This document shows positions 1-36,026 of a stretch of 64,000 nt of DNA, one piece after another; positions within the stretch are counted from its first letter, which is position 1, and each line of letters starts with the position of its first letter. The DNA is taken from the NCBI RefSeq assembly GCF_056746865.1, contig NZ_CM163382.1; one strand, given 5' to 3'. The notes below the pieces were generated by a model, which was given only the letters and a program-made list of their open reading frames with translations, did no database searches and was not told where the DNA came from. The translations under genes were made by a program, and so were the position numbers.

Positions 1-281
1 CCGAAGTGGGCTATAGTCGGGCGCGAGTAATGAACGGTGGCGTTGATGCCGAAAAAGTGATTGGTATTTCCGGACATTTGCTGGCACCTGAGGTGTGTAT
101 TGTTGTTGGCGCTTCCGGCGCAGCAGCGTTAATGGCGGGCGTACGCAATAGCAAGTTTGTGGTGGCGATTAATCATGACGCCAGCGCGGCGGTATTTTCA
201 CAGGCAGATGTTGGCGTGGTTGATGACTGGAAAGCGGTGCTGGAGGCACTGGTGACAACCATTCACGCAGATTGCCAATAA
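1..281 (+). CDS. ygcQ: Electron-transfer-flavoprotein alpha-like protein, C-terminal part (5' end lies outside the window)
   Basis: ORF 6..281 with ETF-alpha-like C-terminus (GASGAAALMAGVRNSKFVVAINHDASAAVF); position and orientation fit the ygcQ-ygcP-ygcO-ygcN-queD order remembered from K-12. Confidence 0.55.
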   Translation, partial: EVGYSRARVMNGGVDAEKVIGISGHLLAPEVCIVVGASGAAALMAGVRNSKFVVAINHDASAAVFSQADVGVVDDWKAVLEALVTTIHADCQ

Positions 282-427
282 CGTGCTGCCGGATGATCCT
301 GCCTACGGTTCTGGCCTGGGGACTTGTAGGCCTGATAAGACGCGTCAAGCGTCGCATCAGACGCTGAATGTCGGATGTGGCGTGCAGCCTACAAATCACA
401 CAAATTCAATTCGTTACGATTATCCCG

Positions 428-1003
428 TCAAAGCAATTTTTTCGCTAGCGTCCAGACCCCGGTATTCGTGGTGGAAAGCGCCACGACACCTGCGTTAATC
501 GCATTACGCGCATCTTCTTCATCGCACACCAGCCCGCCAGCAATCAGCGGTTGGCGGATTTTCTCCGTCACCCAGCCCAGCACTTTGGGCATACAGCCTG
601 GCAGGATCTCAATACAATCCGGATTCGATTGCGCAACTTGCTTATCAATGTTGTGAAACGAAATTGAATCAACAATAAACAGGCGATGAATACAGAAAAA
701 ACCTTCCGCTCTTGCCGCTTTCAACATTGAGGCTTTGGTACTGATAATGCCGTCCGCCTCAGTCACCAGTTTCAAAAACTGAATCACCACTTCTTTATTT
801 GACGCGCCTTCCAGCAAATCAACATGAATAAAAGCATATTTTCCGGCGTTCTTAATCTTTTTAACGATATTACTGATGGTGCAGATATTGCCGTACAACA
901 CGGAAATAAACTGGCATTCAGAGTCGATTGCCAGTTGCAGGCTGGCATTATCTTTAACGGCAGCAATCACCGGATTCTGGCGGAGCAGGTGTAAGAGGGG
1001 CAT
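428..1003 (-). CDS. ygcP: GlpP-like antiterminator family protein
   Basis: 191 aa ORF; size and position match K-12 ygcP between ygcO and ygcQ. Confidence 0.6.
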   Translation of the reverse strand: MPLLHLLRQNPVIAAVKDNASLQLAIDSECQFISVLYGNICTISNIVKKIKNAGKYAFIHVDLLEGASNKEVVIQFLKLVTEADGIISTKASMLKAARAEGFFCIHRLFIVDSISFHNIDKQVAQSNPDCIEILPGCMPKVLGWVTEKIRQPLIAGGLVCDEEDARNAINAGVVALSTTNTGVWTLAKKLL

Positions 1004-1019
1004 AAATTATCCTTATTAT

Positions 1020-1280
1020 TTATCCAAAACGGTAGGTGATGCCGAATCCGGAAGGCGGATAGCGCCACTGTTGTAGTGTTGATTCGTCGCACAGCAAACG
1101 GCAGGTGCCACACTCCAGGCAGCCGCGATAATCAACGCGTAAGTCACCTTCCGGTGTGAGCGAAAAAAGACCAGCCGGACAAGCGTTAATCAACCGTTGT
1201 ACCGTCTGACGCTCAACGGAGTCAGCCGGAACAATGTGCGGCGCATCGGCAACGCGCCAGAGATTACGGGCTACAGACAT
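1020..1280 (-). CDS. ygcO: Ferredoxin-like protein
   Basis: ORF 1020..1316; internal start MSVARNLWRV gives an 86 aa product with the Cys cluster CLECGTCRLLC. The start is chosen to limit overlap with ygcN. Confidence 0.6.
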   Translation of the reverse strand: MSVARNLWRVADAPHIVPADSVERQTVQRLINACPAGLFSLTPEGDLRVDYRGCLECGTCRLLCDESTLQQWRYPPSGFGITYRFG

Positions 1281-2542
1281 CGCAGACTCATGATAACATC
1301 GCCCGCCAGATGCCACAGGCCGTGACGACGTAAATGACGCCAGAATAACTGGCGCAGCGGTGGAACAGGTTTATCACCCTGATCCCATAAATCACGGGAA
1401 ATATCCTGCATTAACGCAGGCCATGCACGGTACCATCCAGGGCGTTGCAAAAGCGCCGGAACATGCTGATAACGTTGTAGAACATCCCATAGCAGGCTGC
1501 GCTCTATGTTGTGATGATAAAGCGCAAACAGATTTTGCGGCTCGCGGTGCTGGCAGGCGCTTATCAGCGTTTGTGCCGCCGCCTGCGCGCCAGTCAGCGC
1601 CATATCCATGCCGCGCACGGAAATTCCGGTATTGACGCAACTGCGCAACGCATCGCCCAGCAGCAGCCAGCCGTTACCGGCGTATTGCACCGGCATACTG
1701 TGCAAGCCACCTTCTGGCACCAGATGCGCACCATACTCCAGTGATTCCGTGTTTTTGATAAGCGGGCGCACTGCCGGATGCGTTTTAAAGCGAGCCAGCA
1801 GCTCGCTTGCCGGAACACGACTTTGCGTAAGGGAAGAGAGCGGGCAAACAATCCCTAACGAGAGCGTTTGTTGATTAGTATAAAGAAATGTGCCGCCGGG
1901 TAAGTCATCACAGATCCCGCCGCTGAACAGCAACGCTGCGCCTTCGTTATTCTCCAGATGAAAACGTTCTTCAATAGCGGATGTTTCAAGCGCCAGCACT
2001 TCTTTGATCCCCAACGCCATCGCTTCGCCAGCAGGACGAGTCACTAACCCGTGACGTTCAGCCAGGACGCTGTTGGCTCCTTCTGCCAGCACCACATAAC
2101 GGGCGCGGAGAATATCGTCACCACAAATGACACCACACACCCTGCCGTTTTCTTCATACAGCGCATCCACCGTCGCACCGGGGATGCATTCGACACCTTC
2201 TTTTTCGGCTTCGGCAACCAGCCACGGATCGAACCGTGCACGTAATACACTCCAGGATTCACCGCCGGGCTGTAAGCTGGAAAACGTCGTTGCGCCATCC
2301 GGCGTTAACAGGGAAAGGCTTTCGTGAGTGATGCGTCGTTCAAGAGGCGCGGTCAGATGAAATTGTGGGAGGAGTTCCGCGAGCGCCTGGGTATATAAAC
2401 GCCCGCCGGAAAGATTTTTGCTGCCGGGGATTTCAGCGCGTTCCAGTAACAAAACGGATAAACCCGCTCGCGCGCAGCGTAACGCGCAAGCGGTGCCTGC
2501 AATACCGGCACCAATAATAATAATGTCGCAGTCGTCTTCCAT
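1271..2542 (-). CDS. ygcN: FAD-dependent oxidoreductase (FixC-like)
   Basis: ORF 1271..2572; start at MEDDCDIIIIGAGIAGTACAL (Rossmann GxGxxG FAD-binding motif) gives 423 aa. Confidence 0.7.
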   Translation of the reverse strand: MEDDCDIIIIGAGIAGTACALRCARAGLSVLLLERAEIPGSKNLSGGRLYTQALAELLPQFHLTAPLERRITHESLSLLTPDGATTFSSLQPGGESWSVLRARFDPWLVAEAEKEGVECIPGATVDALYEENGRVCGVICGDDILRARYVVLAEGANSVLAERHGLVTRPAGEAMALGIKEVLALETSAIEERFHLENNEGAALLFSGGICDDLPGGTFLYTNQQTLSLGIVCPLSSLTQSRVPASELLARFKTHPAVRPLIKNTESLEYGAHLVPEGGLHSMPVQYAGNGWLLLGDALRSCVNTGISVRGMDMALTGAQAAAQTLISACQHREPQNLFALYHHNIERSLLWDVLQRYQHVPALLQRPGWYRAWPALMQDISRDLWDQGDKPVPPLRQLFWRHLRRHGLWHLAGDVIMSLRCL

Positions 2543-2619
2543 GTCATGCCCCAGATATCCAGAACACAACACCCTAACATAGCGTTACTTAAGGGAAATT
2601 GACCGCCGACACACTCTTA

Positions 2620-2985
2620 TCATTCGCCGCGATAGATGCAACCTGCGGTGCAGGTTTCTTTCACCATAACCGCACTTAACAGCGGAACAACCGGTTTAAC
2701 CTGATCCCAAATCCATTTTGCTAAAACCTCGCTGGTCGGGTTTTCCAGGCCAGGAATATCATTGAGATAATAGTGATCGAGGCGCTCGTAGGTTGGCTTA
2801 AACGCCGCTTTTAGTTCAGCGAAATCGATAATCCAGCCCGTATGCGGATCGACTTCCCCGGTAATTTCCAGTCGCACCATAAAGGAATGCCCGTGCAGGC
2901 GACCACATTTATGCCCTTCCGGGACGTGTGGTAAGCGGTGAGCGGCTTCGAAGGTGAAATCTTTAAATAACGTGGTGGACATCAT
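2620..2985 (-). CDS. queD: 6-carboxy-5,6,7,8-tetrahydropterin synthase
   Basis: ORF 2620..3069; internal start [35 protein letters not shown] gives 121 aa with the QueD/PTPS His/Cys zinc-site pattern. Confidence 0.8.
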
Positions 2986-3099
2986 AATTTCTCTACAGGA
3001 CGATAAAACCGCCGTAGAGTACCGGAAAGGCTGTTTTTTCGCATTATCTAAAACGACTTTGTTGCGCAAAATCGCTGATTTATCTTAATGATTGGCTAA

Positions 3100-3300
3100 A
3101 TTCATTTGTTTTTCATTGGGTTGGTTAATCTGTTTTGTTGTTAAAGACTATTGCTAAAACAGGTTAGTCGATTTGGTTATTAGTTATCGCTATCCCGTCT
3201 TTAATCCACACCGTTCACCCCGTTAACCTTACCTTCTCTTCTGTTTTATGGGCGCTGACAGGGCGCAGAAACAGCTTTGCTTACTGGAACATAACGACGC
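3100..3300 (+). promoter_or_regulatory. AT-rich cysJIH upstream control region (expected CysB-activated promoter)
   Basis: About 230 bp AT-rich non-coding spacer between divergent queD and cysJ. The promoter assignment comes from knowledge of the cys regulon; I did not map individual sites. Confidence 0.3.
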
Positions 3301-5100
3301 ATGACGACACAGGTCCCACCTTCCGCGTTGCTTCCGTTGAACCCGGAGCAACTGGCACGCCTTCAGGCGGCCACGACCGATTTAACTCCCACCCAGCTTG
3401 CCTGGGTTTCTGGCTATTTCTGGGGCGTGCTCAACCAGCAGCCTGCTGCGCTTGCAGCGACGCCAGCGCCCGCCGCAGAAATGCCGGGTATAACTATTAT
3501 CTCCGCCTCGCAAACCGGCAATGCGCGCCGGGTTGCTGAAGCATTACGCGATGATTTATTGGCGGCAAAACTGAACGTTAAGCTGGTGAACGCGGGCGAC
3601 TATAAATTCAAACAAATCGCCAGCGAAAAACTGCTTATCGTGGTGACGTCAACGCAAGGGGAAGGGGAACCGCCGGAAGAAGCCGTCGCGCTGCATAAGT
3701 TCCTGTTCTCCAAAAAAGCGCCGAAGCTGGAAAACACCGCATTTGCCGTGTTTAGCCTCGGCGATAGCTCTTATGAATTTTTCTGCCAGTCCGGGAAAGA
3801 TTTTGACAGCAAGCTGGCGGAACTGGGCGGTGAACGCCTGCTCGACCGTGTCGATGCCGACGTTGAATACCAGGCTGCTGCCATCGAGTGGCGCGCCCGC
3901 GTGGTTGATGTTCTGAAGTCCCGTGCGCCTGTCGCGGCACCTTCGCAATCCGTCGCTACTGGCGCGGTAAATGAAATCCACACCAGCCCGTACAGCAAAG
4001 ACGCGCCGCTGGTGGCGAGCCTTTCGGTTAACCAGAAAATTACCGGGCGTAACTCTGAAAAAGACGTTCGCCATATCGAAATTGACTTAGGTGACTCTGG
4101 CCTGCGTTATCAGCCGGGTGACGCGCTGGGCATATGGTATCAGAACGATCCGGCACTGGTGAAAGAACTTGTCGAACTGCTGTGGCTGAAAGGCGATGAA
4201 ACTGTCACCGTTGACGGCAAAACGCTGACCCTGAGCGAAGCGCTCCAGTGGCACTTTGAACTGACCGTCAACACCGCCAACATTGTTGAGAACTACGCCA
4301 CGCTTACCCGCAGCGAAACGCTGCTGCCGCTGGTGGGCGATAAAGCGAAGTTACAGCATTACGCCGCGACCACGCCGATTGTTGACATGGTGCGTTTCTC
4401 TCCGGCGCAACTGGATGCCGAAGCGCTGATTAATCTGCTGCGCCCGCTGACCCCGCGCCTGTATTCCATCGCCTCCTCGCAGGCGGAAGTCGAGAACGAA
4501 GTGCACGTTACCGTTGGTGTGGTGCGTTACGACGTGGAAGGCCGCGCCCGTGCGGGTGGTGCCTCCAGCTTCCTCGCGGATCGTGTGGAAGAAGAGGGTG
4601 AAGTCCGCGTCTTTATCGAACATAACGATAACTTCCGCCTGCCAGCCAATCCGGAAACGTCGGTGATTATGATTGGCCCAGGCACCGGCATCGCGCCGTT
4701 CCGCGCCTTTATGCAGCAACGCGCCGCCGACGAAGCGCCGGGGAAAAACTGGCTGTTCTTTGGCAACCCGCACTTTACGGAAGATTTCCTCTACCAGGTG
4801 GAATGGCAGCGCTACGTCAAAGAGGGCGTGCTGACGCGTATCGATCTTGCCTGGTCGCGCGATCAAAAAGAAAAAATTTACGTACAAGACAAACTGCGCG
4901 AACAGGGCGCGGAGCTGTGGCGCTGGATCAATGACGGTGCCCACATTTATGTCTGCGGCGACGCTAATCGCATGGCGAAAGATGTTGAGCAGGCACTTCT
5001 GGAAGTGATTGCCGAATTTGGTGGCATGGACACCGAAGCGGCGGATGAATTTTTAAGTGAGCTGCGCGTAGAGCGCCGTTATCAGCGAGATGTCTACTAA
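3301..5100 (+). CDS. cysJ: Sulfite reductase [NADPH] flavoprotein alpha subunit
   Basis: 599 aa ORF with an N-terminal flavodoxin-like segment and a C-terminal FAD/NADPH reductase region ([20 protein letters not shown]); stop overlaps the cysI start. Confidence 0.95.
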
Positions 5101-6812
5101 TGAGCGAAAAACATCCAGGGCCTTTAGTGGTCGAAGGAAAACTGACAGACGCCGAGCGCATGAAGCTTGAAAGCAACTACCTGCGCGGCACCATTGCGGA
5201 AGATTTAAACGACGGTCTGACCGGCGGCTTTAAGGGCGATAACTTTCTGCTGATCCGCTTCCACGGCATGTATCAACAGGATGACCGCGACATTCGCGCC
5301 GAACGTGCTGAACAGAAGCTGGAGCCGCGCCACGCGATGCTGTTGCGCTGCCGTCTGCCGGGTGGCGTGATCACCACCAAACAGTGGCAGGCGATCGATA
5401 AATTTGCCGGTGAAAACACCATTTATGGCAGCATTCGCCTGACCAACCGCCAGACGTTCCAGTTCCACGGCATTCTGAAAAAGAACGTCAAACCGGTGCA
5501 CCAGATGCTGCACTCGGTCGGTCTTGATGCGCTGGCGACTGCTAACGACATGAACCGTAACGTACTCTGCACCTCGAACCCTTACGAGTCGCAGTTGCAC
5601 GCGGAAGCATATGAATGGGCGAAGAAAATCTCTGAACATCTGCTGCCGCGTACCCGCGCGTATGCGGAGATCTGGCTCGATCAGGAAAAAGTCGCCACCA
5701 CCGATGAAGAACCGATCCTCGGTCAGACTTATTTGCCGCGTAAATTCAAAACCACGGTAGTGATCCCGCCGCAGAACGATATCGATCTGCACGCCAACGA
5801 CATGAACTTCGTGGCGATCGCCGAAAACGGCAAGCTGGTGGGCTTTAACCTGCTGGTGGGCGGTGGGCTTTCCATCGAGCACGGCAACAAGAAAACCTAC
5901 GCCCGCACGGCGAGTGAGTTTGGTTATCTGCCGCTGGAGCATACGCTGGCGGTGGCAGAAGCCGTCGTGACGACTCAGCGCGACTGGGGTAACCGTACCG
6001 ATCGTAAAAATGCCAAAACCAAATACACGCTGGAGCGCGTGGGGGTTGAGACGTTTAAAGCGGAAGTGGAGCGTCGCGCGGGGATCAAATTTGAACCGAT
6101 CCGTCCATATGAGTTCACCGGACGCGGCGATCGTATTGGCTGGGTTAAAGGCATTGATGATAACTGGCACCTGACGCTGTTTATCGAAAATGGTCGCATC
6201 CTTGATTATCCTGGGCGTCCGCTGAAAACCGGCCTGCTGGAGATCGCGAAGATCCACAAAGGTGATTTCCGCATTACGGCGAACCAGAATCTGATCATCG
6301 CCGGAGTGCCGGAAAGCGAGAAAGCGAAGATCGAGAAGATCGCCAAAGAGAGCGGGTTAATGAATGCCGTCACGCCACAGCGTGAAAACTCAATGGCCTG
6401 CGTGTCATTCCCGACTTGCCCGCTGGCGATGGCCGAAGCGGAGCGTTTCCTGCCGTCTTTTATCGACAACATCGATAATTTAATGGCGAAACATGGTGTC
6501 AGCGATGAGCATATCGTGATGCGTGTAACAGGCTGCCCGAACGGTTGTGGTCGCGCGATGCTGGCGGAAGTGGGCCTGGTGGGTAAAGCGCCGGGTCGCT
6601 ACAACCTGCATCTTGGCGGCAACCGCATTGGGACACGTATCCCACGGATGTATAAAGAAAACATCACCGAACCGGAAATCCTGGCGTCGCTTGATGAACT
6701 GATAGGGCGCTGGGCGAAAGAGCGCGAAGCGGGTGAAGGCTTCGGCGACTTTACGGTGCGTGCGGGCATCATTCGCCCGGTGCTCGATCCGGCGCGCGAT
6801 TTGTGGGATTAA
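5100..6812 (+). CDS. cysI: Sulfite reductase [NADPH] hemoprotein beta subunit
   Basis: 570 aa ORF with siroheme/4Fe-4S Cys motifs ([26 protein letters not shown]); start overlaps the cysJ stop at 5100. Confidence 0.95.
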
Positions 6813-6870
6813 CCATCAGCCCGGTCTTGTAGGCCTGATAAGACGCGTGAGCGTCGCATCAGGCAAGGCA
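6813..6870. repeat. REP-type palindromic element in the cysI-cysH spacer
   Basis: Sequence gtaggcctgataagacgcgtgagcgtcgcatcaggc; near-identical copies occur at about 290-370 and 48550-48690. Confidence 0.5.
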
Positions 6871-6885
6871 AACAGTGAGGAATCT

Positions 6886-7620
6886 ATGTCCAAACTCGAT
6901 CTAAACGCCCTGAACGAACTGCCGAAGGTAGATCGCATTCTGGCGCTGGCAGAAACTAACGCCGAACTGGAAAAACTGGACGCTGAAGGCCGCGTTGCCT
7001 GGGCGCTGGATAATCTGCCCGGTGAATATGTACTTTCTTCCAGTTTCGGCATTCAGGCGGCGGTGAGCCTGCATCTGGTGAATCAGATTCGCCCGGATAT
7101 TCCAGTGATCCTCACCGATACGGGTTACTTGTTCCCGGAAACCTACCGCTTTATTGACGAGTTAACGGACAAACTCAAACTCAACCTGAAAGTGTACCGT
7201 GCTACCGAAAGCGCAGCCTGGCAGGAAGCACGCTACGGTAAACTATGGGAGCAGGGCGTTGAAGGCATTGAAAAGTACAATGACATCAACAAAGTCGAAC
7301 CGATGAACCGGGCGCTGAAAGAACTGAATGCGCAAACGTGGTTTGCTGGCCTGCGCCGCGAACAATCCGGCAGTCGCGCCAATTTACCGGTGCTGGCAAT
7401 TCAGCGTGGCGTATTTAAAGTGCTGCCGATTATCGACTGGGATAACCGAACGATATATCAGTATCTGCAAAAACATGGCCTGAAATATCACCCATTATGG
7501 GATGAAGGATATTTATCGGTCGGTGATACCCATACAACCCGTAAATGGGAACCCGGCATGGCGGAAGAAGAAACGCGTTTCTTTGGCTTAAAAAGAGAAT
7601 GTGGGTTACACGAAGGGTAA
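6886..7620 (+). CDS. cysH: Phosphoadenosine phosphosulfate (PAPS) reductase
   Basis: ORF 6733..7620; start at [15 protein letters not shown] gives 244 aa with the C-terminal ECGLH motif of PAPS reductases. Confidence 0.95.
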
Positions 7621-7637
7621 ATATTGCCGGATAAATT

Positions 7638-7676
7638 AAACGCCTCTGTCAGAAATGATGGGGGCGTTTTTATTTT
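7638..7676 (+). terminator. Probable intrinsic terminator after cysH
   Basis: Stem aacgcc...ggcgtt followed by a T-run (ggcgtttttatttt) about 20 bp after the cysH stop. Confidence 0.4.
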
Positions 7677-7883
7677 GCGAGCAGCATTCCTGATTTTAAA
7701 CGTGAACGCCGCTGGAAGAATTATCAGGTATAGAATGGCGTTGGGTGCTTGAGGCTGTCTGGCGTTAAGCATTCGCGAGGTTCCAGATGGACAAAAGCCC
7801 CAGGCGATATTTCTATCAACCTGAGGCCAGCGTTCGAACCTAAGCAATTCGAATGTTAGTCTCTTCTTTGCAGGGAGGCAAGA

Positions 7884-8036
7884 CATGCTGACAAAATATG
7901 CCCTTGTGGCAATCATCGTACTGTGTTGTACAGTACTGGGATTCACGCTGATGGTAGGCGACTCGTTGTGTGAGTTGAGTATCAGAGAACGTGGTATGGA
8001 GTTTAAGGCAGTTCTCGCTTACGAATCGAAGAAGTA
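7884..8036 (+). CDS. hokX: Hok/Gef-family small membrane toxin (type I toxin-antitoxin locus)
   Basis: 50 aa ORF ([50 protein letters not shown]) with a hydrophobic N-terminus and conserved Cys, typical of Hok proteins; SD ggagg 6 nt upstream. Absent from the ORF track because it is under 60 aa. Confidence 0.6.
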
Positions 8037-8058
8037 GCCACCACGCGGGGGTAAAACC

Positions 8059-17133: not shown

Positions 17134-17138
17134 AAACA

Positions 17139-27152: not shown

Positions 27153-29279
27153 TTAATCTTCTGCTTCAGGCTGGAACATCAGCACGTAAAAAATATGTTG
27201 CTTCCCGCCAATCCTGCCGAGCGCCTTTTTCTTGTAACGGCGGTCGCCTCCCGCTTCCAGCATTCCGGCTGCACTCAACGCGCGGGCAAAGTGAGACGGA
27301 TTAAATCCCTGTGCTATCTCACCCTCAAACACATGCGGGAACGTGTAAAAACGGAACTCGTCATCTTCGTTTCTGATACTCCCCTTTCTGTATCCGGCAA
27401 GGTCTTTAATCGGTAAATCACGCTCGTCGCTGTTTGGATAGGGAAGGTATCGACTGAACCCGAACGACGACAAAAACGCCTCAGCCTGTTCAACCATCTG
27501 TTTAAACTCCCTGTTCCCCGTGCCGAACTCCTTCACCCAGGCATTAAAATTATGCTGAATGGCATCGCGGCATTCCTGCTCATCCCAGCCAGTAACATGA
27601 CCGGAAAGTACAAGCGCGGCCTCCAGTATGGCGAATCGTTCCCCCACACGGTGAACCTGTTCGCCGTAGCTCTCCGGTATCAGGTTGCGCCACCGCTCGC
27701 GACATGCCCTTACCGCGTCCTTTGCCTCCTGCTGGTGTTCTGCCAGCCATTTAACCCACTCACGACCTGCCGCCCCGTGATTTTCTGTCCAGGCATCTTT
27801 TAACGCGTCTGCGTGCGCCTTTCCGGTGCTGTATTCGTGAAACTGCGAGGCCTTTTCCATCGGCACGTTAAGCAGACGGACAAGCTGCCCCGCTTTAATT
27901 TTTATCCCTTCCGTTTTGAGGAATGTTTCAACGTCCATTTCTCCGGTGCTGATTGCCACCGTGCGCCAGTGTTTTATCTCCCTGTTGCCGCCGTCCTTCG
28001 CCCCCTGTAATTTCCCCGAACCGTTAAACAGCGTATAGGCTGACGTGGACACCTCCCGCGCGTTTCCGGCCTGGCCTATTTCATCCAGGGGTAACAGCCC
28101 GTCATTATGTGCTTCGGCCTCGTTGGCGATACCTAACGCCGTTCCGTACCAGGTCAGCCGTTGCGCGTCCGGCTCTCCCCATAAACTTGATGCAATGTTC
28201 TGTGTGGTGGTTTTACCTGCTGATGATTGCTCAAAAAGATGAACCCCGAAGCCGTCAGCACCCACCAGCCCGATTAATGGTGCAGATAGCGATACCGCCA
28301 CACCCAGCATCATGGACGGATTACCACCAGCCAGCCGTGCCACGGTATCGCGCCAGCCCTCCGCTGTTCCCGCCACGGAATAGCCATTAACAGCGGCAGT
28401 TTTTCCGGTAAACAGGATGGGTTTCTCTGATTCACCGATGATCGAACCATCCGGCATGATGTACGCACCAAAATGCCACCCCGTTGTTGTGCTTAACTGC
28501 CATTCCTCATGGTTTCCGCTTAACTGCATCCAGTCAGCCAGGATAGCCCTGTATTTGCCGTTGGTCGTCACGTTAAGGCCGTGGTCTTTCAGCAACCGCC
28601 AGCCGTCACGGTCACCAATGCCTCCGCACGGGACCGCCATTGTAATGACCTCATGGTTTGCTGGTTTTTTCCAGCGCATCACGCGGTAATGCTCTTTGCC
28701 GATTGTTCCTGTTCCCAGTAGTTCAAGCGGAGAACATAACCACGTCTCAGGCCGGATAATTTCGCCTGACTGCTTGTCCACTTTGGGCGTTACCCAGAAA
28801 ACACCATCGACGCGACTTTCAACACGAGGCTTTAATTCGTCATCATAATTTCCGGTGAAATTTGTCTTCGCCGGAAGGTTGATCACCAGACTGTTACCGC
28901 GTTCCGCATCATACTTCAGTCCAGCCATGCGCGGAGTCCAGTCCTCCGGCTGCTGATCAACAAAGCTGCGGTAGCAACGCGCCTCCTTCACACCCGCCAC
29001 TGCAAGCAGTGTCGCTATCTGTGTAAGGTGCTGCTCTGATATTTCACCAGCACGATAAATGCGCACGTAATAGCGTCCTTTGTCGATGATTTGCGTGTCT
29101 GCCAGACTCGCCAGTTGTTCCGGTCCAAGAATAACTGGATGTGTATCATCTGCCGCAATATGCTTTCCGGCCCATTCGCTCCACTCTTTCGCATGTGCCC
29201 AGGCATCACTACCCGCAAAGATAATCACCTCCGTCATTTTGTCTTTCGGCTGGTGCTTTAAATTCGGTGCGCGTTTCAT
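27153..29279 (-). CDS. Primase-helicase (TOPRIM-like N-terminus, P-loop NTPase of the DUF927/D5 type), P4 alpha-like replication protein
   Basis: 708 aa; N-terminal TOPRIM-like segment (VIIFAGSDAWAHAK...PVILGPEQ) and Walker A EQSSAGKTT; iterons lie immediately downstream. Confidence 0.75.
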   Translation of the reverse strand: MKRAPNLKHQPKDKMTEVIIFAGSDAWAHAKEWSEWAGKHIAADDTHPVILGPEQLASLADTQIIDKGRYYVRIYRAGEISEQHLTQIATLLAVAGVKEARCYRSFVDQQPEDWTPRMAGLKYDAERGNSLVINLPAKTNFTGNYDDELKPRVESRVDGVFWVTPKVDKQSGEIIRPETWLCSPLELLGTGTIGKEHYRVMRWKKPANHEVITMAVPCGGIGDRDGWRLLKDHGLNVTTNGKYRAILADWMQLSGNHEEWQLSTTTGWHFGAYIMPDGSIIGESEKPILFTGKTAAVNGYSVAGTAEGWRDTVARLAGGNPSMMLGVAVSLSAPLIGLVGADGFGVHLFEQSSAGKTTTQNIASSLWGEPDAQRLTWYGTALGIANEAEAHNDGLLPLDEIGQAGNAREVSTSAYTLFNGSGKLQGAKDGGNREIKHWRTVAISTGEMDVETFLKTEGIKIKAGQLVRLLNVPMEKASQFHEYSTGKAHADALKDAWTENHGAAGREWVKWLAEHQQEAKDAVRACRERWRNLIPESYGEQVHRVGERFAILEAALVLSGHVTGWDEQECRDAIQHNFNAWVKEFGTGNREFKQMVEQAEAFLSSFGFSRYLPYPNSDERDLPIKDLAGYRKGSIRNEDDEFRFYTFPHVFEGEIAQGFNPSHFARALSAAGMLEAGGDRRYKKKALGRIGGKQHIFYVLMFQPEAED

Positions 29280-29578
29280 TTCTTGCCCCTGAATGCGTTA
29301 ATCATGTTCTTTATTACCTGAATATTTGCCCGTGCTTTCTCTTTACTGGTGGGCTTACTGCGTGGTGCTGCACATACCAGTGAAAAATCACGCCGGAACT
29401 GATGAACGGGCATCACACAGTCATAGTCGTACCCTGCGCGGCGGTATGTAATGTGCCGTTCATACACGGAATTAATAACCACGCTGTCGCCATATTTATC
29501 CCGGAAAATATCCCCGATCCTGATTTTCGGATGAGTCTGTCCGCTGGCATTTAAGCCAGTAAATTTAATCTTCTTCAT
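29276..29578 (-). CDS. Hypothetical protein (100 aa), translationally coupled to primase gene
   Basis: ORF whose stop overlaps the primase start; no recognisable motif. Confidence 0.5.
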   Translation of the reverse strand: MKKIKFTGLNASGQTHPKIRIGDIFRDKYGDSVVINSVYERHITYRRAGYDYDCVMPVHQFRRDFSLVCAAPRSKPTSKEKARANIQVIKNMINAFRGKK

Positions 29579-29580
29579 GT

Positions 29581-29838
29581 TTATTTCCCGGTGTGAGGTT
29601 CTTCTTTATATTTATGGGCTAACAAATCTGGTAATTGCCTGTATTTATCCTCGGCAATATATTCAGAATAATCGACAGCACTGTTCAGTATATCTAACGC
29701 CGTTTCATGCTCCAGATTCGAAACTATAAGGAACGTTGCTACTTTTAGCATATTCGCGATATGCAAAAGAGCATCAATTTCATTTTTTGGCGCTTCACTG
29801 AATTTTTGCTCCAGAAGAATAAATCGTTCATCACGCAT
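29581..29838 (-). CDS. Hypothetical protein (85 aa)
   Basis: ORF in the same operon, 2 nt upstream of the next gene. Confidence 0.5.
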   Translation of the reverse strand: MRDERFILLEQKFSEAPKNEIDALLHIANMLKVATFLIVSNLEHETALDILNSAVDYSEYIAEDKYRQLPDLLAHKYKEEPHTGK

Positions 29839-30034
29839 AGTATTCCCCCTGACGGATGCGGGCAGTAAATACCATCACGCAGCCAGCCGGGGATTGCTGG
29901 CGTGCTTCCTGTTCGCTGGTGGCCACGATGGTAATCACACGCGGTTTTGCGGCGCTCAGGGCGATAAAACGCCAGGCGAATTTATTCAGGTTGTGCGAAT
30001 CCCGCCCTTGCGGGTGTATGGTATGATTTCTCAT
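29831..30034 (-). CDS. Hypothetical protein (67 aa), first gene of replication operon
   Basis: C-terminal part of the spurious 415 aa ORF 29831..31078; start ATG at 30034 is preceded by GAGGT and overlaps the next gene by 8 nt. Confidence 0.45.
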   Translation of the reverse strand: MRNHTIHPQGRDSHNLNKFAWRFIALSAAKPRVITIVATSEQEARQQSPAGCVMVFTARIRQGEYYA

Positions 30035-30130
30035 AGCTACCTCGATACTCTCGTTATCGTTGGTGGTTAGAAGCCCTGCGAGTGGTAACGACACTTGCGG
30101 GGCTTTGTTTTTTGTTGCACTTACTGTTAA

Positions 30131-30174
30131 TGTACGTACGTAATATTGATGATAATAGGAGTTACGTACGTACA
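30131..30174. promoter_or_regulatory. Operator: inverted repeat tgtacgtacgtaa-N18-ttacgtacgtaca in divergent promoter region
   Basis: 13-bp arms, each containing the self-complementary octamer GTACGTAC; the right arm overlaps the start codon of the RHH gene. Confidence 0.5.
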
Positions 30175-30365
30175 TGTCAACATTAAAGCGGGATAAATCA
30201 CCACGCGGCGAGGGATGGTCGCCGACATTCCAGATACGAATTAGCAAAGAACTACGCCAGCAAGTAAACGAGGCAGCAACCGCCGATGGCCTAACCCTCG
30301 GCAATTGGTTTAAAGAATTAGCTCGTGCCGAACTAAAGCGACGCGGCATTGAACCTAAAGGCTGA
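30174..30365 (+). CDS. Ribbon-helix-helix (Arc/Mnt/CopG-like) DNA-binding protein, candidate repressor
   Basis: 63 aa; FQIRISKELRQQVNEAATADGLTLGNWFKELARAEL fits the beta-strand/helix/helix RHH pattern; it sits on the palindromic operator. Confidence 0.55.
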   Translation: MSTLKRDKSPRGEGWSPTFQIRISKELRQQVNEAATADGLTLGNWFKELARAELKRRGIEPKG

Positions 30366-30551
30366 TGTATGACTGAAAAGCAGACCGATAACAAACTTTC
30401 TCTACCAGAGAATAAACCAGCAGGCTTCTTACCAAGAAAAATCCTTGATGAGATCAAACGCCGCCAGCGGCGCAAGGCCAAAGAGCAGGAGTAACCATCA
30501 CCAGCGCCGTGGTGCGGTGAACTGTGGCGCACAGGGTTACAGGTATCTACG

Positions 30552-30749
30552 ATGACTGACAAATCATTAAAGAAATTATCCTCATCCAGGAAAAAACAAC
30601 GCAAAAATGCGGTAAGCGAACAAGAACAGGAAAGATTTGCGCCATGTGCGTTTGTCCTTGAGAAGTTCTTAAAAGAGTACAGGCGCACAAAAATGGAATC
30701 GCATACCTGGAAAACATCGCAGTATGGCGATGCTAAAGAGCAGGAATAG
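30552..30749 (+). CDS. Hypothetical basic protein (65 aa)
   Basis: ORF only; weak support. Confidence 0.3.
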   Translation: MTDKSLKKLSSSRKKQRKNAVSEQEQERFAPCAFVLEKFLKEYRRTKMESHTWKTSQYGDAKEQE

Positions 30750-30917
30750 CCCACCAGCAAGCCAGCACACTGATCACATTGCCCACCAGCCGCAAATCTG
30801 GCATTGTTGGCGATGCGTTTGATTTCCTTTGTTCCCACTGGCGACCTATCCCGGTCGCCTTTGTTTTGCCTGTTATCCAGCAACGGGGCGCTTTTTCTTT
30901 CTGTAACGTTCGGATCG

Positions 30918-31475
30918 TTACACATTGCTTTCACCCTCCAGAAAATCAGGCTGATATTTACGCCATAGCGCCCGCTCTTCTCGTTCCAGTGCATCTTTTG
31001 CCTCTTTGCATTGCTGTAACCTGTAACCGCGTTTGCTGGCTTCCTGTTGATATGCAGCCTGACGTTTACTGAAATCATTCAGCATGGCAAACGGAACACC
31101 ATAACCCCCCGTTTTGCGGATTGAAGGAATCACCTCGCGGAATACCCAGTTACTGAAACGGTGCGCAAATGTGCCTGGTGTGGAAGCTTTACGGCTGCGG
31201 GCGATCAGTTTGTAGAAACCTGATTCAGAGACAACATTCCAGCTTCTGGCACCACCACGCTTACCGGAATGACCCTCGGTTAAAGCTAGGGTCATTACCT
31301 CATCGTTATCCAGAACTGAAACGGCATCAGTAACATTGCTGATTTCCAGCGCGGCACACACATCAGCGCCAACAAACCACGGCTCGCCGTTGATACTCAC
31401 TATGCGCACCTGAATGTCATCGAATTTAATGACAGAGATTTCAGTGCGACCGGCATAAAAGACAGGTTTACGCAT
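30918..31475 (-). CDS. Bro-N domain protein (phage antirepressor-like)
   Basis: 185 aa; N-terminal Bro-N-like segment FDDIQVRIVSINGEPWFVGADVCAALE. Confidence 0.7.
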   Translation of the reverse strand: MRKPVFYAGRTEISVIKFDDIQVRIVSINGEPWFVGADVCAALEISNVTDAVSVLDNDEVMTLALTEGHSGKRGGARSWNVVSESGFYKLIARSRKASTPGTFAHRFSNWVFREVIPSIRKTGGYGVPFAMLNDFSKRQAAYQQEASKRGYRLQQCKEAKDALEREERALWRKYQPDFLEGESNV

Positions 31476-32292
31476 GGCTGCTCACCTCCATGCGGCGGGC
31501 TAACCAGCGTTGCGAAAGACGAATTAATTCAGCTTTCCGCTGGTGGTAGTCCTGGCCTAACTCAATCAGCGTGATATTGCTCTGCTCAAGGTAAGAAAGG
31601 TGCTCAAGCTGCAGCGTGCTCATGTGGTCGCGTGGTTCGCCTGTGATGCCGTTCGCCTGCGCCCACTGTTTTGCATTCATGCCACCCAGCACGATACGCG
31701 CCAGCATATTGGCTTCCGTGGTGTAGTGGTGCTGGAGCGTGTTTTTACCCAGTTCAGCCCGGTACGCCTCCAGCGCGGCACACATTGGCTTAAAGTAGCT
31801 GGCTACGGTGATACGGGCTTTCAGTTCCCGGCGTAACGCTGCGGAACGTACAGGCGCTACCTTGTGTAGCTCCTCCTCGCATTTGATGAAGTACTGACGA
31901 ACGGCGCGGCCCTGTTCGGTGCGTTCGATCATTGCCAGTTCTTTCGCCATTCCGACACTTAACAGATAGTCTTTACCGGGTCTGCCAGAGTGCTTAATCT
32001 TGCTGTAAGCCTCGCCATTCGGGCTTTTCCCCAAATTTGGGGAAATTGTTTTATGGACTGAGTAATCGTACCCAATGGTGAAGTCATATTCAGAGATACG
32101 ATCAGTGATCCATGTAGAGAAGTCTTTTCCCACGCCCAACGCTTTGTGTAACGCTTTTGCGCTAACAACAGCGGCTTCACGCCCGCCAATAACGCCGGAA
32201 ATAACCGGGATAATTTCGCCGAAATTTTGCAGATTCTGGTTTTCAGGCCGAACAAAGCCCTGCCCCTGTACGGGCGTTTTTCGCAGTTTCAT
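31468..32292 (-). CDS. Phage antirepressor-like protein (Ant/KilAC-type)
   Basis: 274 aa; resembles prophage antirepressor proteins (ALHKALGVGKDFSTWITDRI); start overlaps the Bro-N gene. Confidence 0.55.
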   Translation of the reverse strand: MKLRKTPVQGQGFVRPENQNLQNFGEIIPVISGVIGGREAAVVSAKALHKALGVGKDFSTWITDRISEYDFTIGYDYSVHKTISPNLGKSPNGEAYSKIKHSGRPGKDYLLSVGMAKELAMIERTEQGRAVRQYFIKCEEELHKVAPVRSAALRRELKARITVASYFKPMCAALEAYRAELGKNTLQHHYTTEANMLARIVLGGMNAKQWAQANGITGEPRDHMSTLQLEHLSYLEQSNITLIELGQDYHQRKAELIRLSQRWLARRMEVSSHA

Positions 32293-32367
32293 AAAAACTC
32301 CGCTATCGAATTAAGTTACTTTTTATTTGCTAGTGGATAGCTTGGGCAATAACCCGTAGCTATTTAA

Positions 32368-32565
32368 TCAGGCAGCCGTTCCGCGTGATTCGGCAATACG
32401 CTGATTGATCCATTCGTCAATTTCACTTTCAACGAAAGCAATCGCTCGCGAGCCAATTTTAACTGATGCAGGAAATTTACCTTGCCCCATAAGGCGATAA
32501 ATCCATGCCTTGCTATATCCAGTTCTACGCTGAACTTCTGTTAAACGAATAAGCGTATTTGACAT
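32368..32565 (-). CDS. alpA: AlpA-family transcriptional regulator / excisionase-like protein
   Basis: 65 aa with the MerR-like HTH pattern of AlpA (LIRLTEVQRRTGYSKAWIYRLM...SEIDEWINQR). Confidence 0.8.
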   Translation of the reverse strand: MSNTLIRLTEVQRRTGYSKAWIYRLMGQGKFPASVKIGSRAIAFVESEIDEWINQRIAESRGTAA

Positions 32566-32668
32566 CTATTTACCTCATAACGTCTACTCAATTTGACGAG
32601 GTAATCATGGCACAGAAATAACGAATATTTTCATACCCTCAGGCCTAATGGTTACCGGAAGGAAATTA

Positions 32669-32777
32669 ACCCTAAGGGTGATGGTAATCGGGAGGAAATC
32701 TACCCTAAGGGTGATGGTAAAATTGACGGGGAAGATAAAAAAATACCCTCAGGGTAACAGTAAATCACCCTCAGGGT
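32669..32777. promoter_or_regulatory. Array of four palindromic sites ACCCT(A/C)AGGGT upstream of alpA
   Basis: Copies at 32669, 32702, 32745 and 32767; the first two are embedded in a longer direct repeat (accctaagggtgatggtaa). Confidence 0.45.
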
Positions 32778-32792
32778 ATGCGGTATGGTGCG

Positions 32793-33596
32793 TTAATCCG
32801 GCTTTGCGTTCTTTTGGCTGTTGTCTCGGTTAATAGGGCAGGCAGTCCTCTCTATGAGCGTTGCAAGAGCATTACTTGCCCCCCACTGCTTAAGCTCCCT
32901 AGTTATCGCTTCTTGATTTCCCCTGGTGGCAAAATCATTTTCTGGATCGTAATTGGCCCACTCTCTGTTTCTAATCTCAATAGCCTTAGCTAATGGGTCT
33001 TTATCCCAGTATTTATATAAGTGTATCGGGCGCTCTTGCTCTAACTGCTCTATCCTTGCCCTTAACTCTGCGTTTTCTCTTTCCAGCATTGCGATTTGGG
33101 ATAATAAATCATCCTCTGTACGCAACTCTTTCTTTTCAATATCGCGTCCTTGTACCTCGTCATTTTCAGAAGAGTTAGCGCCTTCCAGCTTCGTTAACGC
33201 GTCAAGGACATCGGGAAAAATTGCGAAAATTTCACCCCTTATAAATCCAATGTTCTCAAATTCGGGATCTTCCCAATAACCGGACACCAGAAAACCATTT
33301 TCATCCCTCTCACCAGGTAAACAACCATGTTTCCGAACCGCATCCAGATTTCTATAAAGAACATCATAATCAAATTCATCCCGATACGGGTTACAAAAAG
33401 ATTCCAACAGCTTAAATTCATTTACTGTGTACAGGCGGATATGTTCTCCGCTTATTCTCCTGAGTATCCAAGTTATGAGATCTGAAACATCATAATCATC
33501 ACCAGCGACCTTAAGCACGACCTCAAGAAATTCACGTAAAGAAATAAAATCTTTTTTGTATTCGTTTAATTCGGCATGAATATCAATCATACGCAC
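32793..33596 (-). CDS. Hypothetical protein (267 aa) between integrase and alpA
   Basis: Acidic protein with a coiled-coil segment (IAMLERENAELRARIEQLEQE); no catalytic motif recognised. Confidence 0.6.
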   Translation of the reverse strand: MRMIDIHAELNEYKKDFISLREFLEVVLKVAGDDYDVSDLITWILRRISGEHIRLYTVNEFKLLESFCNPYRDEFDYDVLYRNLDAVRKHGCLPGERDENGFLVSGYWEDPEFENIGFIRGEIFAIFPDVLDALTKLEGANSSENDEVQGRDIEKKELRTEDDLLSQIAMLERENAELRARIEQLEQERPIHLYKYWDKDPLAKAIEIRNREWANYDPENDFATRGNQEAITRELKQWGASNALATLIERTACPINRDNSQKNAKPD

Positions 33597-33718
33597 ACCT
33601 CAGCGTCCTCTACTGTAGTGGCTGTGCCAGCCCGTCGAGGTATACGGTTTTTCGGGAGCGACCCTAGACACAGCTTTTTCTTTCGTCGCTCAAAGTCTAC
33701 TACTGTATACTCAACCAG

Positions 33719-34972
33719 TCATCCACATTTTCCGAACTTGCCATGCACCACGTTGCCGCCCTGTTCCAGTGAGTCCATATAGTCGGCGTACCACTGGAGC
33801 ATCTCGCGCCGCCCGTCCAGATATTGCGCATGATTGTACGTGCCACGAATTGAGTTCTTATCAACGTGTGCAAGCTGCGTTTCTATCCACGCGGTGTTAT
33901 AGCCCTGCTCATGTAAAATCGTGCTCATCGTGTGCCGGAACCCATGACCAGTAACGCGCCCAGAATAGCCAATACGACGAATAAGCACGTTCATCGCCAT
34001 TTCACTCATCGGCTTACTGTGCTGGATTCGACCAGGGAAAATAAACTGATACTGCCCCGTCATGTGTTTTAACTGTTCCAGAATAGCGATCGCCTGTTCT
34101 GAAAGCGGCACACAATGAGGACGGCGCATCTTCATTCGTTCTTTAGGCACTTCCCACAAACGATTATCAAAATCGATCTCCTGCCATTCTGCCTGTCGTA
34201 ATTCCCCTGGCCGGAGCCCTGTCAGAATCAATAATCGCATACCCAGCTTGACGATCTGGCTTCCGGTGTACGTATTAAGAACGCGGAAAAATTCCGGCAG
34301 TTCGTCGGCCTTCAAATAGGCATAATGCTCTTTTTTGTGTGGAGCAAATGCGCTTGCCAGATCTGGTGCGGGGTTATATTCAGCGCGTCCGGTGATGATT
34401 GCGTACCGGAACACCTCGCCGCATCGCTGGCGAACCTTACGCAATTTTTCGGTCGCCCCACGGTCATTAAGACGGGAGAGAACCGCAAGCAACTCCATTG
34501 GCTTAATTTCTGCGATCGGCCTGCCGCCAATGTACGGAAAAACGTCTTTTTCAAACGTCTCGATCATTTCCTCGGCGTATGACGATGACCACCTGTCGAT
34601 CCGCTTTTCATACCATTCGCGAGCGATACCCTCAAAAGTATTGCCAAATTTGCTCGCCTGTTCTCGCTTTTGAGCTTTTCTGGCCTCACTTGGATTTATA
34701 CCACCAGCAAGAAGCCTTTTAGCCTCATCCCTTGCCGCTCTGGCATCAGACAGAGACACATCAGGGTACACGCCCAACGACAACATTTTGGGCTTTCCTG
34801 CAAATCTGTAACGTAGTCGCCACCCTTTCGAGCCGTTCGGCTCAATGAGTAACGAAAGCCCGTTACCGTCATTGAGTGTATAAGCCTTTTCTTTCGGCTT
34901 CGCGCGCCTGATAGCAAGGTCTGAAAGCAGCATGTGTATAGCTCCAAAAAATAAATTTTGTCCTATACGCAT
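33719..34972 (-). CDS. int: Tyrosine site-specific integrase (P4 / CP4-57 IntA family)
   Basis: 417 aa with an N-terminal arm-binding-like domain and a C-terminal catalytic region (HGFRHT, LAHVDKNSIRGTYNH); adjacent to the tRNA 3' end. The true start may be the internal MLLSDLAIRR. Confidence 0.9.
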   Translation of the reverse strand: MRIGQNLFFGAIHMLLSDLAIRRAKPKEKAYTLNDGNGLSLLIEPNGSKGWRLRYRFAGKPKMLSLGVYPDVSLSDARAARDEAKRLLAGGINPSEARKAQKREQASKFGNTFEGIAREWYEKRIDRWSSSYAEEMIETFEKDVFPYIGGRPIAEIKPMELLAVLSRLNDRGATEKLRKVRQRCGEVFRYAIITGRAEYNPAPDLASAFAPHKKEHYAYLKADELPEFFRVLNTYTGSQIVKLGMRLLILTGLRPGELRQAEWQEIDFDNRLWEVPKERMKMRRPHCVPLSEQAIAILEQLKHMTGQYQFIFPGRIQHSKPMSEMAMNVLIRRIGYSGRVTGHGFRHTMSTILHEQGYNTAWIETQLAHVDKNSIRGTYNHAQYLDGRREMLQWYADYMDSLEQGGNVVHGKFGKCG

Positions 34973-35097
34973 TACTATACACTTCTGTGTGTAGATTCTG
35001 GTAGTTGTGAGTAGACGTTAATAAGCTATGAAAATGGCTGAAAGGCTTGATATTCGTGGATTTGATGGACTTCAGTAGACGTTGAGAAATGTTTGTT

Positions 35098-35171
35098 TGG
35101 AGCGGGCGAAGGGAATCGAACCCTCGTATAGAGCTTGGGAAGCTCTCGTTCTACCATTGAACTACGCCCGC
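35098..35171 (-). tRNA. glyU: tRNA-Gly (anticodon CCC)
   Basis: Reverse complement reads GCGGGCGTAGTTCAATGGTAGAACGAGAGCTTCCCAAGCTCTATACGAGGGTTCGATTCCCTTCGCCCGCTCCA: cloverleaf-compatible, anticodon loop CTTCCCAAG, T-loop GGTTCGATTCC, 3' CCA. Confidence 0.9.
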
Positions 35172-35249
35172 TTCGAGATGCGTAAGGCATTATAAACCTT
35201 ACGCTCTCCTTAGCAAGTGCCGCGCTGCTGACTGCTGATTAATTCGCCA

Positions 35250-36026
35250 TCAGCATTTTGGCTTGCTGCCCTGAGGCGGCAAGTAACGCAGCGGATCAAT
35301 TGCCGTAGCACGGTAACGAATCTGGAAATGCAGGCGAACCGATGCCGCATCAGTGCTCCCCATAGTGGCGATTTTTTGCCCAGCCTTCACGCTTTGCCCA
35401 TTATTTACCAGCATCGTGTCATTATGGGCGTAAGCCGTAATGTAATCTTCACTGTGTTTAATCATGATGAGATTACCGTAGCCACGCAGCTGGTTGCCCA
35501 CATACACCACCTTTCCTGCACCCGCGGCGTAAATAGGTGTACCCCGTGGAGCTGAGATATCAATCCCTTTATTGCCGCCATCAGCTGTCGAATACGGCAT
35601 GATAACTTTCCCTGTCGTTGGCCATAACCAACAACGTTGCCCTACTGGCGGCCAGGAAGATTTCGGTACTGCTGATGACGGTGTAACCGATGCGGTTTTG
35701 GTCGTTGATTTGGCGGTTGATTTACGTGTACTGCTACTTTTCGCCCCACCCAGTTTTAGTTTCTGACCAACTTCAATGGTGTAAGGGGGGGAAATGCCGT
35801 TCAGTCGCGCCAGCTCTTTTACGCTGGTTCCCGTGGTGCGCGAAATACGATATAGCGTATCCCCCCGTTTCACGGTGTAAACGGAGCCGGAATACGTTCC
35901 TGTATCGGATGATTTGCTACCCGAGCAGCCCGCCAAAAGCAGTCCAACCGATAACAACATCACGATACCCAGAGATTTTTTATTCAGGCGTCCCGCACTC
36001 AAAATCTTTCCTCGCTTAAAAAACAA
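35250..36026 (-). CDS. ygeR: LysM-domain M23 peptidase lipoprotein
   Basis: Lipoprotein signal (LLLAGCSG), LysM (YTVKRGDTLYRISRTTGTSVKELARLNGI) and M23 motifs (HLHFQIR). Confidence 0.8.
   Translation of the reverse strand: MFFKRGKILSAGRLNKKSLGIVMLLSVGLLLAGCSGSKSSDTGTYSGSVYTVKRGDTLYRISRTTGTSVKELARLNGISPPYTIEVGQKLKLGGAKSSSTRKSTAKSTTKTASVTPSSAVPKSSWPPVGQRCWLWPTTGKVIMPYSTADGGNKGIDISAPRGTPIYAAGAGKVVYVGNQLRGYGNLIMIKHSEDYITAYAHNDTMLVNNGQSVKAGQKIATMGSTDAASVRLHFQIRYRATAIDPLRYLPPQGSKPKC

Follow-up and report, generated by a model that had tools for sequence, protein, structure and literature searches.

How did the type I-E CRISPR-Cas (cas) genes of an Escherichia coli chromosome come to lie directly beside, and on the opposite strand from, the tRNA gene glyU and the integrative island that adjoins it? 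The question is raised by a stretch of 64,000 nucleotides from contig NZ_CM163382.1 (RefSeq assembly GCF_056746865.1), referred to here as the window. A sequence-only reading of the window had proposed a large inversion, or a more complex rearrangement, with one endpoint in cas5 and another at the island. We find that the joint falls inside cas5e (casD), within a 7-bp sequence, GGCGAAG, that is also the core of the island's attachment (att) site in the 3' end of glyU, and we consider it highly probable that the window genome carries a real inversion whose endpoints were defined by the island integrase.

Relative inversion of the cas and glyU blocks

Reference strands and coordinates were taken from the K-12 MG1655 record, with which the window was compared by direct BLAST. 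According to the K-12 annotation, cysJ, cysI, cysH, cas3 and casA-E all lie on the minus strand at 2,880,374-2,891,898, while glyU (2,998,984-2,999,057) and actS/ygeR are also on the minus strand and xdhA is on the plus strand (2.999-3.003 Mb); casD and glyU are ~118 kb apart. The sequence-only reading had stated that cysJIH, cas, glyU and ygeR share a strand in K-12 and that roughly 100 kb separate cas from glyU, and the annotation and the alignment bear out both statements. In the window, cysJIH (3301-7620), cas3, casA, casB and cas7e are on the plus strand and glyU and ygeR on the minus strand. Positions 1-7887 correspond to K-12 2,895,199 down to 2,887,311 in reverse (97.0% identity), and positions 35097-42112 to K-12 2,998,983-3,006,000 in the forward direction (98.2%). 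The skew of guanine over cytosine (GC skew) is above zero across 1-16 kb and below zero from 17 kb to ~53 kb; this change of sign agrees with a relative inversion of the two blocks, but it is weak evidence on its own. A deletion is rejected as the cause, as it is unable to change the relative strand. The window covers only one of the two joints that an inversion creates.

The window arrangement is derived and recent: the relatives SW071620 and CFSAN061770 keep the K-12-like order, and the joint is absent from all 5,426 complete RefSeq E. coli genomes. SW071620 is 100% identical in one piece to positions 1-15615 of the window, including the insertion sequence (IS) IS421 between hok/gef and cas3; there, however, an intact 248-aa cas5e is followed by cas6e, cas1, cas2 and the CRISPR array, and glyU, which shares the strand of cysJ, is found at a distance of 137.6 kb, next to ETT2 and without an island. 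CFSAN061770 matches both blocks of the window, with a K-12-like relative orientation. The possibility that the order seen here is ancestral in the lineage, which the sequence-only reading had itself named as the outcome that would undo its proposal, is thus rejected: the nearest relatives have the K-12-like order and an intact cas5e.

The joint lies in a 7-bp core common to cas5e and glyU

Genomes with a native cas5e match the window up to 15622, and genomes with a glyU island match it from 15615/15616; the overlap of 7-8 bp is GGCGAAG. The endpoints proposed by the sequence-only reading are therefore right to the base, as cas5e ends at 15622 and the island end starts there. The part of cas5e left in the window comprises its first 21 codons from 15554 (21-23 codons up to the locus end). 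The repeat shared with glyU extends at the joint as far as 15626 (GGCGAAGGGAA), and the direct repeats of the island are found at 15616-15626 and 35098-35115. Native cas5e reads ...gatgccccc GGCGAAG tgcgtcataccc..., the reverse complement of the glyU 3' end reads TGGAGCG GGCGAAG GGAATCGAACCC, and the far end (attL) of the island family represented by strain CS5L, 320 bp past yqeG, reads ...gataaatTGGAGCG GGCGAAG GGAAcaatacaac; the window joint reads ...gatgcccc GGCGAAG GGAAcaatacaac. The 7-mer is identical in cas5e and the glyU 3' end, the breakpoint falls within this common core, and the cas5e copy stands in the opposite chromosomal orientation to the glyU copy. The core in which strands were exchanged would thus measure 7 bp, as does the overlap region of a tyrosine recombinase. 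The K-12-type casD allele does not contain the 7-mer.

No IS and no long repeat is present at the joint (15540-15800 examined), the nearest IS being IS421, ~6 kb to the left, and an IS200/IS605 element, ~9 kb to the right. An IS-mediated inversion is rejected on the ground that the joint is free of IS.

The run of C residues before the core (15612-15615) has four C in the window and five in SW071620, GCA_046604685.1, SRR8989464 and ETEC1747. The short run could be a sequencing error, slippage or the result of an imprecise exchange. Four C also occur in a few native cas5e genes, namely that of FORC_044, which is annotated as frameshifted, and those of two Logan contigs, and in ETEC1747 the attL of the island copy at glyU is likewise one G short beside the core. 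As it stands, the joint yields a chimeric open reading frame (ORF) at 15554-15877, in which 21 cas5e codons run into island sequence to give 107 aa; with the run repaired to five C it becomes a 154-aa fusion ORF, which gene callers have annotated in other assemblies. We saw no sign in the sequence that the chimeric ORF is functional, and an exact protein look-up returned no match to the 107-aa version. The exact Cas7e, Cas3, 283-aa and integrase proteins, by contrast, are very common, and their look-ups gave ordinary contexts only. The exact DNA patterns of both joint types had no match in species-representative genomes and JGI metagenomes.

The reciprocal joint is present in another clone

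Protein records were queried with the 154-aa fusion ORF (five C) and then with a GTG-start, 225-aa truncated Cas5e. The exact 154-aa protein is on record in three contigs. In GCA_046604685.1, a single contig of 138.6 kb carries cas3-casA-casB-cas7e-cas5'-island-integrase-glyU-ygeR side, with an island that is a 10 kb variant, and SRR23378764 is 100% identical to it over 7,446 bp. In SRR8989464 the cas5'::attL joint recurs, with a cas allele 95% identical to that of the window; because the allele differences reach to within 22 bp of the core, we regard it as an independent event.

The query with the truncated Cas5e led to a 42 kb contig of SRR23378764 that carries galR-lysA-lysR-ygeA-araE-kduD-kduI-yqeF-yqeG, then 329 bp, the 3' part of cas5e, cas6e, cas1 and cas2. 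Its reciprocal joint consists of the yqeG flank, TGGAGCG, GGCGAAG and the cas5e 3' part (...gtgaagataaatTGGAGCGGGCGAAGtgcgtcataccc), set in the order yqeF-yqeG-329 bp-...gataaatTGGAGCGGGCGAAGtgcgtcataccc-cas5e 3' part-cas6e-cas1-cas2, and it carries no island. As an inversion with attL and the cas5e core as its ends should leave exactly this hybrid site, the contigs indicate that in the GCA_046604685.1/SRR23378764 clone the inversion is complete, reciprocal and precise. Both exact hybrids are present in this clone and in ETEC1747, while the window shows one hybrid only.

We lean towards the view that the inversions in the window and in GCA_046604685.1 are independent events. On the cas side the two differ by one single-nucleotide polymorphism (SNP) in 6.1 kb, whereas the island interiors differ by 1.5% and by a 7.3 kb module; two SNPs fall in the first 54 bp past glyU. 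The cas allele of the window is extremely widespread (7,853 blocks).

A flank of ~150 bp beside the glyU att site is alike whether ETT2 follows, as in SW071620 (27870-28020 of locus L031), or yqeG follows directly, as in CS5L (5850-5993 of locus L005) and SRR23378764 (9850-9993 of locus L035). The boundary between presence and absence of ETT2 therefore lies just past this flank.

The cas5e site also receives whole islands

In ETEC1747, a related island lies wholly inside cas5e at the same core. Its left joint reads cas5'-GGCGAAG-GGAAcaatac and its right joint integrase arm-TGGAGCG-GGCGAAG-tgcgtcat. A second copy of the island sits at glyU, 99.9% identical to the cas5e copy, inverted relative to it and ~130 kb apart from it (NZ_CP122722.1, 975,431-987,6xx and 1,116,286-1,126,375). 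The glyU copy has an intact integrase, while the cas5e copy has lost the integrase and a neighbouring gene by deletion. This is the geometry from which recombination between the copies would produce the window arrangement, and the interval between them should be prone to flipping.

Joints between the integrase arm and the 3' part of cas5e (attR'-type) were also found at contig ends in GCA_031020925.1 and SRR17709973; these attR' joints include a TTGAGCG variant. Among the 78 complete genomes that carry the integrase-proximal arm of the island, the arm stands beside cas5e in ETEC1747 only, and the joint of the yqeG flank with the cas5e 3' part occurs in none of the complete genomes. Protein look-ups gave no record of the ETEC1747-type fusion ORF or of a TTG-start, 231-aa Cas5e. 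In all, the same core has been used in three cas alleles that differ by ~5% (those of the window type, ETEC1747 and SRR8989464).

Mechanism of the inversion

The integrase gene of the window island lies 165 bp from glyU. Since an identical protein adjoins ygeR/glyU in all ten of the contexts shown, glyU is the primary site. That this integrase made the cas5'::island joint is strongly supported: the core is identical in both sites, the joint is precise, the site has been reused in three cas alleles, and the enzyme is specific for its primary site. As both breakpoints coincide with the 7-bp att core, the event would be integrase-defined rather than IS-mediated or random. The inverted segment, from cas5e codon 22-24 to the attL end of the island, measures ~106-138 kb, depending on the presence of ETT2. 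What we infer is that the integrase was the catalyst, in which order the steps occurred, and that the window genome has a second joint.

We suggest the following course of events. The integrase would normally exchange strands at the core in the glyU 3' end, and allele-A cas5e would by chance offer the same 7-mer in the opposite chromosomal orientation. With glyU occupied, a second copy of the island would enter this pseudo-att site in cas5e, inverted with respect to the glyU copy as in ETEC1747. Recombination between the inverted copies would then flip the interval, either by RecA-dependent homologous exchange or by integrase (Int) and AlpA pairing the attL of one copy with the attR of the other; such cross-pairing would first give a tandem island and a clean reciprocal site. 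One of the copies could later be lost. In the source genome the reciprocal joint is predicted to read (GH15/ETT2 or yqeG flank)...GATAAATTGGAGCGGGCGAAGTGCGTCATACCC. We take this two-copy route to be the best explanation of the window inversion, with confidence that is middling.

Several observations weigh against this account. Look-ups by protein and by DNA pattern did not recover the other joint of the window genome, which lies outside the window. The C-run of the window is one short of the five to be expected after a precise exchange. In its flanks the cas5e site matches the glyU attB at 16 of 40 positions, only slightly above the typical 9-12 at other GGCGAAG sites, of which a genome has an estimated ~1,000, and extended similarity to attB does not explain the choice of site. 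Finally, the island-free reciprocal joint of SRR23378764 means that the two-copy route needs either an extra loss step or Int/AlpA cross-pairing. Long inverted repeats at the breakpoints are seen as a precursor geometry in ETEC1747, and the window's second joint is unseen.

A shorter route, to which we give distinctly less credence, is that Int paired the attL of the resident island directly with the inverted pseudo-attB in cas5e or, equivalently, that the attR' of a copy freshly inserted in cas5e recombined with a vacated glyU attB, with no second copy and no homologous recombination. The island is single-copy in the GCA_046604685.1/SRR23378764 clone, where a short-read contig runs straight through it, and a clean, island-free hybrid is the exact product of one reciprocal core exchange. 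Lambda Int performs reactions of the attL x attB type at low efficiency (the 'straight-L' pathway). Such non-canonical pairing, however, is usually very inefficient in vivo, and all components of the two-copy route have actually been observed, in ETEC1747 and in the attR' joints. The clean joint in SRR23378764 does not discriminate between the routes, because it fits the one-step exchange directly and also arises by the two-copy route after excision of a copy or by cross-pairing. It is unlikely that the window holds no inversion at all and comes from an ETEC1747-like two-copy strain, in which the assembler, or a mixed population in the course of flipping, linked the end that faces cas5e in one copy with the end that faces glyU in the other. 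Two-copy genomes of the required kind do exist, a 19.5 kb island is hard to span, its 7.3 kb phage stretch and its IS are probably repeated elsewhere in the genome, and the short C-run hints at a long-read homopolymer error. Yet the inverted state is stable in an independent assembly in which both joints are seen, and the window is contiguous over other repeats (IS421, IS200/605), with no direct sign of a chimera.

More improbable still is a complex rearrangement in which nested inversions or a translocation brought only a smaller piece, ygcQ...cas7e, to the side of the island. No more than 15.6 kb of the left block, whose other boundary falls beyond the window, can be seen, and this leaves room for such a course; the joint is nevertheless exactly at the att core, and the joint between yqeG flank and cas5e 3' part in the sister clone is what a single inversion predicts. 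Least credible of all is an ancestral order, or an inversion by IS, rRNA operons or other ordinary repeats. IS421 and the IS200/605 element are present in the window, but neither is at the joint; SW071620, which is identical over 15.6 kb with IS421 included, combines the K-12 order with an intact cas5e, and the joint's absence from the 5,426 complete genomes also speaks against it. We thus return to an integrase-defined inversion, by way of two island copies, as the account to be preferred.

Consequences for the cas operon

The type I-E locus of the window is not complete; it stops in cas5e, and cas6e, cas1, cas2 and the CRISPR array are absent from the window. The operon would be split, with cas3, casA, casB, cas7e and the 21-codon cas5e stub staying behind the cas promoter region and the 3' part of cas5e, cas6e, cas1, cas2 and the CRISPR array lying more than 100 kb away. 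A complete Cascade complex could therefore not be encoded from one operon. Reports generally describe type I-E CRISPR-Cas as silent in E. coli, and for this reason the consequences for the cell are probably small. The genes of the flipped interval would be reversed relative to replication, both breakpoints lying in one replichore on the K-12 map, and the fitness effect of such a flip would be measurable in natural isolates. Excision of the island through its present ends would cost glyU its 3' terminal bases.

The case provides a base-level cause for an E. coli rearrangement of more than 100 kb without IS elements, rRNA operons or prophage pairs: an island integrase that targets a tRNA gene, together with a 7-bp look-alike site in a gene, would suffice. 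It also represents a natural and recurrent inactivation of the type I-E cas operon by a mobile element, through insertion in one strain and inversion in others, and this matters for interpreting the presence or absence of cas genes, and the integrity of their operon, in genome surveys. We may speculate, as a long shot, that the cas5e site is no accident and that islands of the glyU family keep a core that matches the commonest E. coli cas5e allele, and so disable type I-E. Should the primary site be taken, a new copy would enter cas5e or invert through it; insertion would then be a form of counter-defence, large inversions would be its by-product, and the K-12-type casD allele would be immune.

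The glyU island and neighbouring features

Over its whole course from attL to glyU the island aligns with the one that CS5L carries between yqeG and glyU, in four collinear blocks of 98.0-99.2% identity. It has the layout of a phage-inducible chromosomal island (PICI), with an integrase, an AlpA-type excisionase, a primase/replication module and att repeats, and it is without capsid, terminase or lysis genes; its virion internal-protein genes are atypical for a PICI. The integrase domains (Arm-DNA-bind_3, Phage_int_M and Phage_integrase) were assigned on an identical protein. Along its entire length the 7.3 kb cargo module shares 99.4% identity with the temperate Escherichia phage EC.W1-9, and it is 98.3% identical to a prophage (locus L017). 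Its ejection proteins include a transglycosylase. At the same position other islands of the family, that of FDAARGOS_1298 (13860-21207 of locus L002) among them, have three other large virion proteins that are not orthologous to these. It would be unusual for a satellite family to carry exchangeable cassettes of helper-type ejection proteins. The CS5L island is without the IS200/IS605 element and has ~1 kb of perC/proQ-like sequence in its place.

In the left block, IS421 sits between hok/gef and cas3 and parts cas3 from its upstream region. The element is found at the same site in SW071620, and an IS-free allele (locus L033) brackets it; in CFSAN061770 the hok-IS421 unit is a tandem duplicate. 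The features of the window are collected in Table 1.

Table 1. Features of the window, by position from its first nucleotide.
Feature	Position	Strand	Evidence or remark
Left block, inverted relative to K-12	1-15615	+	Reverse K-12 alignment; single 100% match to SW071620; ORF list
Start of left block: ygcQ 3' end, ygcP, ygcO, ygcN, queD (-)	before 3301		
cysJ	3301-5100	+	
cysI	5100-6812	+	
cysH	6886-7620	+	
hok/gef	7885-8037		Left block
IS421 (IS4 family)	8048-9396	+	Transposase 8114-9226; NCBIfam IS4 family; named IS421 in SW071620 annotation
cas3	9581-12280	+	
casA	12378-13940	+	
casB	13937-14473	+	
cas7e	14488-15543	+	
cas5e (casD) 5' stub, native through GGCGAAG	15554-15622	+	Native cas5e genomes match only to 15622; FORC_044, SW071620 and ETEC1747 sequences
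Putative crossover core GGCGAAG, cas5e/island joint (hybrid attL')	15616-15622	.	Match ends and site alignment
Integrative, satellite/PICI-like island of glyU family, 19.5 kb	15616-35097	-	CS5L alignment, gene content
Cargo module	16875-24220	-	Phage/prophage identity; PHROG 342/1044/6118
53-aa ORF	within 16875-24220	-	
283-aa gene	17163-18014	-	
Internal virion (ejection) protein, 1129 aa	18016-21405	-	
Internal virion (ejection) protein, 915 aa	21405-24152	-	
IS200/IS605-family element	24743-26490	.	tnpB 24786-25994 (-), tnpA-like ORF 25897-26433 (+)
Replication and regulation genes of island	26517-33596	-	PHROG/NCBIfam matches; Pfam labels on same proteins
SSB	26517-26942	-	
DUF927 primase	27153-29279	-	
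DUF4222	29276-29578	-	
Icd-like ORF	end of ORF 29831-31078	-	
Bro-N	30918-31475	-	
AntA	31468-32292	-	
AlpA-type excisionase	32368-32565	-	
265-aa protein of unknown kind	32793-33596	-	
Tyrosine integrase, 404 aa	33719-34933	-	PHROG 1 integrase, E=7e-79; NCBIfam PRK09692
glyU, tRNA-Gly(CCC), sole tRNA of the window	35098-35171	-	ARAGORN
attR in glyU 3' end	TGGAGCG 35098-35104, core GGCGAAG 35105-35111, GGAA 35112-35115		Sequence; 18-bp direct repeat at CS5L attL
Right block, K-12 orientation	35172-64000	+	ORF list; K-12 alignment; 100% identity to many strains; SW071620 annotation
Genes of right block: ygeR/actS (-), xdhABC, ygeV (-), ygeW, ygeX, ygeY, hyuA, yqeA, yqeB and yqeC (-), mocA, ygfK, ssnA, ygfM, xdhD, xanQ, guaD			
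ygeR	35250-36005	-	

Comparison with known systems

Homologous recombination between inverted prophages, IS elements or rrn operons inverts parts of the chromosome in E. coli and other bacteria. An inversion mediated by prophages is described, for example, in S. pneumoniae (PMC8637289). If the two-copy route is right, the flip seen here would be the same mechanism acting on two inverted island copies of 10-20 kb; unlike in those cases, the position of the second copy, and with it of the breakpoint, would be set by site-specific integration in a gene, and the final joints are precise att hybrids.

The use of cas5e resembles that of secondary attachment sites by lambda Int (Shimada, Weisberg and Gottesman 1975, as cited in PMC8637289). 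As summarized there, such sites share a short core with the primary attB and are used rarely, mainly if the primary site is unavailable (PMC8637289). Here, too, a tyrosine integrase would act at a chromosomal site that shares its core, and in ETEC1747 the second copy is in cas5e while glyU is occupied. The classical outcome with lambda is insertion, whereas in the present case the secondary site is inverted and more than 100 kb from the occupied primary site, the product is a large inversion, and a satellite-like island, seated at a tRNA gene, takes the place of lambda.

Among archaea, large inversions of the Thermococcus chromosome that run between att and att-like sites have been attributed to the integrase of the element pTN3 (Cossu et al. 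2017, PMC5495485). In both cases large inversions are linked to an integrase from a tRNA-targeting mobile element. The pTN3 integrase, however, also carries out a low-specificity exchange that resembles homologous recombination, on segments of at least 104 bp, and its inversions are frequent (PMC5495485); here, the exchange appears to have taken place within a 7-bp core, is rare as judged from the complete genomes, and would be catalysed by the integrase.

As regards the site and the element, glyU is an integration hotspot in E. coli, known as the GI-glyU or ETT2 locus (bioRxiv 10.1101/860726; PMC4313913). The same tRNA gene is the primary insertion point of the present island, while the islands described there are at glyU itself. 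EcCIMP1, a PICI-type phage satellite of E. coli, is integrated at tRNA-Thr with the core TCCTATTATC (PMC11773190). The present island shares with it the int-alpA-primase layout over ~10-20 kb, the flanking direct repeats and the lack of capsid or lysis genes; it differs in its tRNA and core and in having large phage internal-virion-protein genes. The literature that we searched holds no description of a secondary site in cas5e or of an inversion linked to it, though it does hold precedents for this kind of event. Two textbook phenomena meet in this event, recombination at a secondary att site and the flipping of DNA that lies between inverted sites or copies, and the finding is solid rather than surprising.

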